Shown one piece after another: positions 4,757-6,324 of a stretch of 64,000 nucleotides of DNA; the first letter of the stretch is position 1; each line of letters opens with the position of its first letter. The notes under the pieces were generated by a model. It was not told the DNA's origin and ran no database searches. It worked only from the letters and a program-made list of their open reading frames with translations. Source of the DNA: Escherichia phage KIT01. Location: the sequence record AP019521.1, one strand, 5' to 3'. A program made the translations under genes and the position numbers.

Positions 4757-5311
4757 TCAATTCTTATAGAATCGGAACGGGTTTACGTGGAAGGCTAACA
4801 TAGCCTTAGGGATTTTACGAGACAAAAGACTCTTAAGTTTCCAACCGCAGTATACTCGTAGGTAAAAGGTAATCCCACCAACCTTAAGATATGGAACCGA
4901 AGCAAAGACTCCCCAGGCGTCGTCATTCCACATCCATAGCCACCCATGATGAGCTTTATCAGGAGAACCTGATTCCACATCGGGATTACCACGATAATGG
5001 AATTCTGAGCTACAATCACGGCCGAGTTTATGGTAAGCAAAGTTATAAGCTTTATTTCGCCACAACCAGGCTACTCGTTGAAGGTATATGCCTAAAGGTA
5101 GTTTTCTTATTTTAGCCCAACGTTTAATGTGACCTTTATCACCGTCAATTGGATTATCGTATGTCATCATCCAATCAAAGCCGTACGGCAATTTACCAGT
5201 CTTTTTATTGTGGAAAGGAACTACAAAAGGTGCAAGGATAACAGCCAGAACCATAGAGATAAAATCTAGTGGGACCAACAGAACCCAACTCAAATATTTT
5301 AAAAGTTTCAT
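4757..5311 (-). CDS. hypothetical protein with N-terminal hydrophobic segment
   Basis: 184 aa; late promoter TATAAATA at 5338-5345 and same upstream cassette as the IPIII-like gene. Confidence 0.45.
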   Translation of the reverse strand: MKLLKYLSWVLLVPLDFISMVLAVILAPFVVPFHNKKTGKLPYGFDWMMTYDNPIDGDKGHIKRWAKIRKLPLGIYLQRVAWLWRNKAYNFAYHKLGRDCSSEFHYRGNPDVESGSPDKAHHGWLWMWNDDAWGVFASVPYLKVGGITFYLRVYCGWKLKSLLSRKIPKAMLAFHVNPFRFYKN

Positions 5312-5337
5312 ATTATTTCCTAAGTTAGTTTACTACA

Positions 5338-5345
5338 TATTTATA
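5338..5345 (-). promoter_or_regulatory. T4-type late promoter TATAAATA
   Basis: exact TATAAATA on minus strand upstream of gene 4757..5311. Confidence 0.6.
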
Positions 5346-5352
5346 CAAAAAA

Positions 5353-5374
5353 GGCCCAACCTTTCGGAAGGGCC
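5353..5374 (-). terminator. terminator-like hairpin at the end of the tRNA/RNA transcription unit
   Basis: ggcccaacctttcggaagggcc followed on minus strand by UUUUUUG. Confidence 0.55.
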
Positions 5375-5389
5375 TTTAACCTAGGGTAA

Positions 5390-5750
5390 CCTTGTCGGGG
5401 TTCCACCTGCTAGGCAAGTGTTTGTACGAAACGCCAGGATTCGAACCCGGTTATTAAGTAGTTGACGCTACTCAATATTTTTAAAAGGCCATATCTCGAC
5501 CATATCCGAACGTTCCGTCAAAAACGCTACTCGGCTTACGGCAAAGATATTTCCTCGAATCGATAATTAGGTGCGCCGTTTCTGCTGTGATGTAAGGGGA
5601 CGTTAACAGATCGTAAAGATTTGTTAATGCCAGTCCTTACTCAGGGAACATCAGTCCGACGACTTACCGGTAGCGACCCGGTTTCTTGTTTGTTGCGCCG
5701 GTGAATGCTGGTAATCAGTCTTCATACGACGGCTTGACTATATAATAGTC
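5390..5750 (-). ncRNA. ORF-free region downstream of the tRNAs: candidate stable small RNA(s), comparable in position to T4 species 1/2 RNAs
   Basis: about 360 nt without ORF of 60 aa or more, bounded by tRNA-Arg and a terminator hairpin; contains a tRNA T-arm-like GGTTCGAATCC motif (5434-5450) without a full cloverleaf. Confidence 0.3.
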
Positions 5751-5756
5751 TTCATT

Positions 5757-5831
5757 TGGTATCCCGCCCTGGGATCGAACCAGGACCGCAAACTTAGAAG
5801 GATCGTATGCTATCCATTACACCAGCGGGAC
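5757..5831 (-). tRNA. tRNA-Arg (anticodon UCU), CCA encoded
   Basis: manual cloverleaf: 7-bp acceptor GTCCCGC/GCGGGAT, T-arm CCTGG-TTCGATC-CCAGG, anticodon loop CTTCTAA with U33 and A37; one mismatch in anticodon stem. Confidence 0.7.
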
Positions 5832-5836
5832 GTAGT

Positions 5837-5913
5837 TGGTGACCCAGACCAGATTTGAACTGGTAACCTTTCCCTTATGAGGGGACTGCTGCTAACCATT
5901 GAGCTACAGGGCC
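5837..5913 (-). tRNA. tRNA with CAU anticodon (Ile-lysidine type or Met), CCA encoded
   Basis: manual fold: acceptor GGCCCTG/CTGGGTC (one mismatch), U8, D-arm GCTCAATGGTTAGC, anticodon loop CTCATAA, T-arm ACCAG-TTCAAAT-CTGGT. Confidence 0.6.
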
Positions 5914-5918
5914 TTAAA

Positions 5919-6185
5919 TCAAACTACAAATCCAGCAGGAGCATTATCATCTTTAGCCATGTGCTGAATTGTATGATAAGTCATTTCTTCAGGAGCAACC
6001 AGATAAGCCGCAGCGTTAACTAGTGGAATTATTTTTGGTTTAGCGAATGTGCTATCGGCAATTGCCATAAAGGGCTCGCCATCAGTCTCAACTTCGCCAA
6101 ATTGACATTCATATGAAATAGAACAACGTTTGGTAGTTGTTGTCTTGGTTTCTGGGTCGTAAAAAGCTAATTTTAATACTAACAT
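5919..6185 (-). CDS. hypothetical protein
   Basis: track ORF 5919..6191 begins at GTG; ATG at 6185 with GAGGT RBS preferred. Confidence 0.35.
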   Translation of the reverse strand: MLVLKLAFYDPETKTTTTKRCSISYECQFGEVETDGEPFMAIADSTFAKPKIIPLVNAAAYLVAPEEMTYHTIQHMAKDDNAPAGFVV

Positions 6186-6297: not shown

Positions 6298-6324
6298 ATA
6301 ATAACACATTACTCTTAAAGCATA
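6298..6324 (-). promoter_or_regulatory. middle-type promoter candidate (MotA-box-like) upstream of the tRNA-proximal operon
   Basis: minus strand taTGCTTTA-N12-TATTAT; shares aaagcatattact with the rnlB site. Confidence 0.35.

Follow-up and report, generated by a model that had tools for sequence, protein, structure and literature searches.

We analysed a 64-kb stretch of the genome of Escherichia phage KIT01 (record AP019521.1; hereafter the window), and in it a locus, read on the minus strand throughout, in which two transfer RNA (tRNA) genes are followed by a region without open reading frames (ORFs) and an intrinsic terminator. Judged by its sequence, this locus (5345-5913, minus strand) is almost certainly the second tRNA subcluster of phage T4 in trimmed form, carrying orthologues of the T4 stable RNA genes rnaD (species 2) and rnaC (species 1), whose products we call RNA D and RNA C. 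We assign it in this way because it is ~99% identical to Dhakavirus QL01, aligns in order with T4 rnaD and rnaC, and contains two tRNAs identical to T4 genes. The rnaC/rnaD element itself is already known and is textbook T4 biology, the species 1 and 2 stable RNAs having been recognised since the 1970s. Covariation now shows that RNA C folds into a tRNA-like four-way junction, in which the D and anticodon arms of a tRNA are replaced by two other arms. Taking identity, fold, biogenesis and function together, we consider the account developed below very probably the best explanation of the locus, with its individual parts differing in strength.

A BLAST search with 5340-5760 against 50,697 phage records matched 803 of them, nearly all from enterobacterial T-even phages. 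QL01 is the closest match across the locus, and by this sequence relationship the source of the window is a T4-like Dhakavirus; the QL01 annotation describes a T4-like neighbourhood (57B, Ip genes, trna.4/.3/.2, e.8, e.6). The matching stretch of phage GiZh is annotated as 'rnaC, species 1 RNA' and a terminator, and that of T4 (NC_000866) as tRNA-Arg, rnaD (species 2, 119 nucleotides (nt)) and rnaC (species 1, 139 nt). A four-way alignment of the window, QL01, T4 and GiZh places rnaD at 5689-5570 and rnaC at 5563-5425, with a 3' trailer and the terminator also conserved, so that the order tRNA-Ile, tRNA-Arg, rnaD, rnaC, trailer, terminator is shared with T4. Over its entire length RNA C matches T4 rnaC at 98.6% identity (137/139 nt in NC_000866); RNA D is 88% identical to T4 rnaD and 100% identical to that of QL01. 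A first-pass annotation, made from the letters of the sequence and a list of ORFs, had likened the locus to that of the T4 tRNAs and their linked species 1 and 2 RNAs, and this likeness turns out to be direct orthology in the same order.

Between 5000 and 6400, the minus strand carries an ORF ending at 5919, the two tRNAs, ~410 nt without a minus-strand ORF, and the next gene, which starts at 5311. The ORF-free region described in the first-pass annotation is borne out, as no minus-strand ORF of at least 25 amino acids was found between 5311 and 5810; the plus strand has two short TTG-initiated ORFs only (5462-5566 and 5621-5704). The fold of the whole 421-nt stretch is far more stable than those of shuffled sequences (z = -5.9). 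At Rfam gathering thresholds the two tRNAs pass and nothing else does, and a permissive Rfam scan (E up to 10) of 5300-5960 added only sub-threshold noise (tRNA-Sec, isrK, BTnc231, Plastid-ycf2, Xist). Rfam has no family for RNA C. Few GenBank phage records have rnaC or rnaD features; in many, the region is labelled 'hypothetical protein', or its 3' part is labelled tRNA-Lys, tRNA-Met or tRNA-Phe.

RNA C spans 5425-5563 on the minus strand (139 nt) if the ends of NC_000866 are applied, and 5426-5562 (137 nt) with those of the original T4 record, X03016. We number RNA C from window coordinate 5563 as position 1, the window coordinate being 5564 minus the position. Homologues were taken from phages in GenBank, supplemented by pattern scans of IMG/VR and metagenomes, and were filtered with a covariance model of the family. 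The resulting alignment holds 32 distinct sequences from at least eight Tevenvirinae lineages, the sampled lineages being Tequatro-, Dhaka-, Karam-, Winkler-, Kanagawa- and Gelderlandvirus, Marfa-like Klebsiella phages and Citrobacter phage Ursula. RNA C of KIT01 scores 161.6 bits against the model and is the sole copy in the window. Only 12 of the 82 matches in the metagenome pattern scan were real, all of known types, and the remainder were chance matches, as were two loci (L031 and L033) that we considered as homologues and rejected. No E. coli homologue was found in 5,426 genomes, and a scan of 185,579 species genomes gave 74 pattern matches, all by chance in high-GC bacteria and none matching the covariance model.

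The ends of RNA C pair in an acceptor-like terminal stem, formed by positions 2-8 (5556-5562) and 131-137 (5427-5433). It consists of five Watson-Crick pairs and a tandem U·U, the latter invariant across the 32 homologues; pair 4-135 varies, with A-U in 12 of them and G-C in the other 20. Arm 1 (positions 9-78; 5486-5555) is a long irregular hairpin with the apical loop UUGACG at 5521-5516. Compensatory changes affect 13 of 17 pairs in the middle helix and four of six in the apical helix, and T4-, Dhaka-, Karam- and Winkler-type phages show almost no variation over the 44 nt at its apex. Positions 79-86, a conserved A-rich single strand, link arm 1 to arm 2 (positions 87-112; 5452-5477), a hairpin with the loop CGUCAA at 5467-5462. 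The first-pass annotation had picked out the AGUAG-CGUCAA-CUACU part of this hairpin, which is real and extends to 10 base pairs (bp), nine of them with compensatory changes. The T-arm (positions 114-130; 5434-5450; CCGGG-UUCGAAU-CCUGG) lies exactly where a tRNA T-arm motif had been noted. Without a linker it runs into the 3' half of the terminal stem (5433-5427), after which comes U-ACAA. At T-stem pair 116-128, 13 sequences have G-C and 17 have U-A; the T-loop is canonical in 29 of the 32.

In a plain MAFFT alignment 94.7% of the cells in this fold are paired, against 36-44% with slid partners, and double changes occur in 21 pairs, against 1-7 with slid partners. The model-based alignment, which is biased towards the model, gives 94.3% paired and 29 compensatory pairs, equalled in none of 500 shuffles. 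The single-sequence minimum-free-energy fold is the same structure (z = -4.3; 0/200 shuffles as good). As had been observed, 5390-5756 contains no complete cloverleaf: ARAGORN makes no call, there is no match to RF00005, and the best match from the tRNA clan is tRNA-Sec at 14.3 bits (E=8), far below the gathering score of 47. The alternative guess of a tRNA-like RNA holds for RNA C, the ends of which pair as an acceptor-like stem abutting a true T-arm. We also considered an alternative acceptor pairing, of ACGGAACG (46-53) with CGUUUCGU (131-138), which underlies a 95-nt 'tRNA-Met' call by ARAGORN in phage UFV01; it has an A·C mismatch in 17 of the 32 sequences and more mismatches in the type II sequences, fails in the majority of lineages, and was rejected.

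The loops of arm 1 (UUGACG, positions 43-48) and arm 2 (CGUCAA, 97-102) are exact reverse complements. Complementarity between the two loops is 100% in all 32 sequences, the one variable pair being A-U in 26 and G-C in six. Both loops are otherwise invariant; the six exceptions, all of the Klebsiella-phage type (loci L027-L030, L052 and L113), have UUGGCG and CGCCAA, a concerted change from A-U to G-C. The case for the loops pairing as a kissing loop is real but thin, and such a contact probably locks RNA C into a compact shape. A weaker hint of tertiary structure comes from the base of arm 1, where G74-G75 is found in the 29 sequences with a canonical T-loop and C74 in the three with the T-loop UGCAUSC; U120 is changed to G in the same three, and this co-change fits a contact of the D-loop/T-loop kind. 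It emerged from a targeted G74/U120 table, which was the only informative analysis, as a mutual-information scan for tertiary pairs was swamped by clade signal. In type II RNA C, for example that of PEi20 (L026 1403-1546), the word complementary to the arm 2 loop recurs, nearly unchanged, on the 3' side of the arm 1 base (UGACGG; UUGGC in the Klebsiella type) and could there offer that loop an alternative partner.

In X03016 (L131, 1142-1278) species 1 begins at C2, in the first pair of the terminal stem, and stops at U138, a lone discriminator nucleotide. These older ends fit a tRNA-like acceptor end exactly. Species 2 in the same record (1016-1135) ends in ...CACCA. RNA C of the Klebsiella-phage type, and no other, encodes U-CCA after the terminal stem, and the nucleotide preceding the stem is U in 28/32 sequences and A in 4/32. 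In other genera (examples are Karam-, Winkler- and Gelderlandvirus and phage Ursula) RNA C holds a tRNA slot within a tRNA array: the order is tRNA-Trp, RNA C, tRNA-Gly in UFV01, AS6 and Melville, tRNA-Trp, RNA C, ORF, tRNA-Gly in Ursula, and tRNA-Phe, RNA C, tRNA-Trp in LC53. Wherever a tRNA directly follows RNA C, the spacer is 6-12 nt. The 3' part of RNA C is called a tRNA by ARAGORN in a homologue and in some GenBank annotations. In the window, RNA D and RNA C are divided by the 6-nt AU-rich spacer UAAUUA (5564-5569), a likely endonuclease processing site, and in other genera RNA C is set off from the tRNA upstream by comparable short A/U-rich spacers. JS10-type phages lack rnaC precisely, while rnaD, the trailer and the same tRNAs are kept. 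In JS10 (L007 1504-1700) and the loci L036-L040, all Dhakavirus-like, the two sides of the junction read ...GCGCAC(C/A)GA and ACACUUGCC..., making these phages natural rnaC knock-outs.

RNA D (5570-5689, minus strand; 120 nt) was delimited by alignment, RNAalifold and the T4 annotations. Its alignment comprises 16 distinct homologues, from Tequatro- and Dhakavirus only, and RNAalifold predicts 25 pairs, six with compensatory changes. Covariation shows RNA D to be a rod, with a 5' hairpin, two conserved helices flanking a purine-rich internal loop, and a freely varying tip. The 5' hairpin, H1 (5682-5666), has a closing pair that changes from A-U to G-C in two sequences. The closing helix P2 (5663-5657 with 5578-5571) is invariant, as is the asymmetric purine-rich internal loop. 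In helix P3 (5650-5647 with 5586-5583), pair U40-A107 becomes A-U in six sequences. The consensus further includes a helix P4 and the hypervariable tip, the latter a distal hairpin at ~5640-5592. Read on the plus strand, 5666-5682 gives the reverse complement of H1 followed by a T-run, which scores as terminator-like, probably by coincidence. A paralogous relationship between rnaD and rnaC was tested by shuffling and is not significant (p = 0.26). JS10-type phages have RNA D and no RNA C, and genera other than Tequatro- and Dhakavirus have RNA C and no RNA D. Each RNA thus occurs alone, which argues that RNA D would act independently of RNA C.

ARAGORN over the full 64 kb and Rfam RF00005 agree on exactly two tRNAs, those already folded by hand in the first-pass annotation; no further canonical tRNA turned up anywhere in the window, and the cluster is indeed reduced, to two tRNAs compared with eight in T4. 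tRNA-Arg(UCU) (5757-5831, minus strand; 48.8 bits) has an encoded CCA and is identical to T4 tRNA-Arg at 75/75 positions. The second tRNA, with a CAU anticodon (5837-5913, minus strand; 53.9 bits), matches the annotated T4 tRNA-Ile gene over all 74 nt, and that gene is annotated as tRNA-Ile in both NC_000866 and X03016. We set aside the 'Met' label given by ARAGORN as naive; we take this tRNA to be of the Ile2 type, which decodes AUA once C34 is modified. The pair is identical to T4 Arg(UCU) and Ile(CAU), so AGA and AUA are the codons whose decoders the reduced cluster has retained. These are the rarest codons of E. coli. The two tRNAs are separated by the homing endonuclease gene segB in T4, by a spacer of only 5 nt in the window, and in Dhakavirus LHE83 by a homing endonuclease gene of 666 nt (L206 423-1088). 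The DNA of the rnaC T-arm, GGGTTCGAATCC (5434-5450), matches the GGTTCRANTCC core of the SegB recognition site (PMC2330249).

Three further elements complete the locus. Between tRNA-Arg and rnaD lies a 67-nt insert (5690-5756, minus strand) that the window shares only with QL01-like Dhakaviruses; T4 and GiZh lack it. Within it are a 6-bp hairpin and a repeated word, AUGAAGACU. Local alignment of the insert with rnaD, rnaC or the trailer gave scores no higher than those of shuffled sequences (p = 0.4-0.98), so we rejected the idea that it is a partial duplicate of any of them. The conserved 3' trailer (5378-5424, minus strand) forms a small hairpin, CACUUGC-CUA-GCAGGUG; it is kept in phages without rnaC, and in JS10-type loci it lies directly 3' of rnaD. 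The intrinsic terminator (5345-5377, minus strand) consists of a GC-rich hairpin, capped by a GAAA loop, and a U-tract behind it; its homologues are the 'pot. terminator' of X03016 and the ARNold terminator of GiZh. The first-pass annotation was right that a terminator hairpin closes the region and erred in its position, as the hairpin and its U-tract lie ~15-45 nt beyond 5390, where the region had been taken to end. A simple terminator scan missed 5345-5377; the stem as folded has an internal loop.

A scan for sigma-70 promoters found none. A MotA-type site (MotA box TGCTTTA, 12-nt spacer, TATTAT) lies at 6298-6322 on the minus strand, ~385 nt upstream of the tRNAs; three MotA-type matches occur in the window against 1.6 expected, which is not above chance. 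A T4 late-promoter motif, TATAAATA, is found at 5338-5345 on the minus strand, directly after the U-tract of the terminator and ahead of the ORF at 4757-5311, and such motifs occur 18 times in the window against 7.6 expected. Transcription of the T4 cluster is attributed to an upstream middle promoter, which would give one precursor that ends after species I (PMC2330249). RNAC and RNAD of T4 have been classed as late RNAs, and Northern blotting with an RNAC probe detected a discrete stable RNA of ~140 nt (PMC9697503).

How would the two RNAs arise? We think it likely that tRNA-processing enzymes excise RNA C and RNA D from the transcript of the tRNA operon, because the X03016 ends fall at the stem and the discriminator, RNA C of the Klebsiella type is followed by CCA, and RNA C sits in tRNA slots with short spacers. 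Both RNAs would be co-transcribed with the tRNAs and freed by the host tRNA-maturation machinery. RNase P would cut where the terminal stem of RNA C begins, at its first base pair, an endonuclease would cut in the AU-rich spacers, and a 3' exonuclease would trim to the discriminator U, where CCA could then be added. The tight folds would give both RNAs their metabolic stability. According to older T4 work, RNase E and RNase P process a species 2-species 1 precursor and mature species 1 is 140 nt long.

Any proposal about function must be more tentative. RNA C could be a non-decoding tRNA mimic that acts in trans on a factor recognising tRNAs, the reading we favour, though with limited credence. 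Such a mimic might occupy or titrate a host nuclease or sensor that targets tRNAs, or an enzyme that processes or modifies them, and its benefit to the phage would be accessory and host-dependent. Such a benefit is suggested because rnaC has been precisely lost in JS10-type phages and because of the effect of a single-nucleotide polymorphism (SNP) on virulence in one host: a convergent SNP in the rnaD region of the T4-like phage BW-1 took its virulence index (RBG) on E. coli ECOR34 from 0.17 to 0.98 in three independent lines (PMC12685909). It is a rather improbable extension that RNA C, and independently RNA D, serves as an RNA-based counter-defence or host-tuning factor. A CCA-capable mimic, matured by RNase P and locked in shape by the kissing loop, might then neutralise a tRNA-directed nuclease or sensor, or hijack a modifying enzyme. 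If true, this would explain why the RNAs are retained in tRNA arrays across enterobacterial T-even phages, why they are dispensable in the laboratory, and how one SNP in the rnaD region could switch a T4-like phage from poor to full virulence on a single E. coli strain.

Several points weigh against parts of this account. The RNA ends, the stability and the processing enzymes are here inferred from T4 annotations and anatomy, and the T4 records themselves differ by 1-2 nt: RNA C has 137 nt in X03016 and 139 nt in NC_000866 (L002), and RNA D has 120 and 119 nt, respectively. In most lineages, the window included, the discriminator U is followed by ACA, and three of the 32 T-loops are non-canonical. 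The covariation in the kissing loop amounts to one evolutionary event, and the loops could pair in trans, forming a dimer, instead of in cis. A decoy role, argued from analogy, is a guess. The numbering of the ECOR34 SNP is ambiguous in PMC12685909, which leaves its place on the RNA D fold undefined, and the SNP could instead alter the expression of neighbouring genes. The roles of the species 1 and 2 RNAs are stated to be unknown (PMC3014915, PMC9697503, PMC12685909), and in the literature searched no paper assigns them a function; neither RNA has a known partner protein or target.

The main rival to a trans-acting mimic is that RNA C and RNA D are cis-acting operon furniture, modules for processing and stability whose accumulation as stable RNAs is a mere by-product; we regard this as possible and no more than that. 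As tRNA-like punctuation they would recruit RNase P and RNase E and cap the 3' end against exonucleases. The RNAs are indeed always found within or appended to tRNA operons, the T4 primary transcript spans the tRNAs and both RNAs (PMC2330249), the trailer and terminator are conserved alongside, and a terminal stem with a T-arm suffices as the RNase P requirement. However, a cis module has no need for an invariant kissing-loop pair, an invariant tandem U·U or a nearly invariant 44-nt arm tip. In other genera, moreover, adjacent tRNAs already offer RNase P sites a few nucleotides away, and JS10-type phages lose rnaC while retaining the same tRNAs, rnaD and trailer. Small RNAs that regulate phage or host mRNAs by base pairing are an unlikely explanation, although the RNAs have been named 'small regulatory RNAs' or 'regulatory' (PMC9697503, PMC12685909), accumulate late and, in the case of RNA C, contain the conserved single-stranded A-rich linker (79-86). 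Against this, nearly all conserved nucleotides are locked in intramolecular structure, the sole long single strand is a low-complexity A/U run, and the mature ends lack a terminator-type 3' tail.

It is very unlikely that RNA C is chargeable, as a tRNA-like or transfer-messenger RNA (tmRNA)-like molecule that is aminoacylated after CCA addition and acts on the ribosome or donates its amino acid. The acceptor-like stem, discriminator and T-arm would suit such a role, as would the U-CCA of the Klebsiella-phage variants and the gene end at the discriminator in X03016. Yet RNA C has neither a G3·U70 pair nor an anticodon arm, carries a tandem U·U in its stem and is mostly followed by ACA; ARAGORN reports no tmRNA or tag, no Rfam tmRNA match appears even at E up to 10, and no Rfam tRNA or tmRNA match to RNA C reaches threshold. 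The region could be decaying tRNA pseudogenes or neutral spacer devoid of function, as could be read from the T-arm remnant, the ARAGORN pseudo-tRNA call in a homologue and the loss of rnaC in some phages, but this is hardly tenable for a sequence that is 98.6% identical between T4 and a Dhakavirus, has 29 compensatory pairs and keeps its loops invariant over at least eight lineages. The least credible reading, in our view, is that of small protein-coding genes. Several records annotate a 'hypothetical protein' here, and the two plus-strand TTG ORFs would encode 27-34 amino acids; but the minus strand has no ORF, the substitutions come in pairs, as in an RNA, and do not follow codons, and the T4 records annotate RNAs.

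What we add to the known T4 element is a covariation-backed fold of RNA C, its occupation of tRNA slots in several genera, and the natural knock-outs of the JS10 type. Together, these three results make the ~50-year-old question of what species 1 and 2 do directly testable. A curated RNA C model would also clean up hundreds of phage genome annotations.

Compared with its T4 counterpart (T4s001), rnaC of the window occupies the same slot, after rnaD and before the trailer and terminator, with the same strand logic. The two differ by at most three substitutions, one T-stem pair, for example, being G·U in the window and G-C in T4, and the window has no segB nearby. rnaD is likewise downstream of tRNA-Arg in both the window and T4 (T4s002), with little or no change in the conserved 48 nt at its 5' end and 25 nt at its 3' end; it differs in being preceded by the 67-nt insert and in its unlike distal hairpin. 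After ...CACC, rnaD of the window continues with U and that of T4 with A, so that the CCA is not fully encoded in the window.

With canonical tRNAs, especially those of class II, which have a long variable arm, RNA C shares a seven-position stem continuous with a 5-bp T-stem, the T-loop UUCGAAU, a single discriminator nucleotide and the tRNA slot; its arm 2 takes the place of such a variable arm, with one nucleotide between it and the T-arm. Unlike these tRNAs, it lacks a D-arm and an anticodon arm, is 139 nt long, contains the tandem U·U and ends in ACA instead of CCA. The tRNA-like domain of tmRNA is similar in having an acceptor/T-arm module and, on the anticodon side, a large structured insert with a pseudoknot-type contact. 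RNA C differs from it in having no tag reading frame and no G·U alanine identity pair, and in not being detected as a tmRNA by ARAGORN or Rfam. Bacterial and phage YrlA (Y RNA-like) RNAs, mascRNA and the TMER RNAs resemble RNA C neither in sequence nor by covariance model, as no Rfam match appeared at E up to 10 over 5300-5960, a Ro/Rsr gene not having been searched for. In YrlA the RNA ends form a Ro-binding stem and not an acceptor. YrlA, mascRNA and the TMER RNAs of MHV68 are nonetheless all tRNA mimics that do not decode and that tRNA-processing enzymes mature into small stable RNAs.

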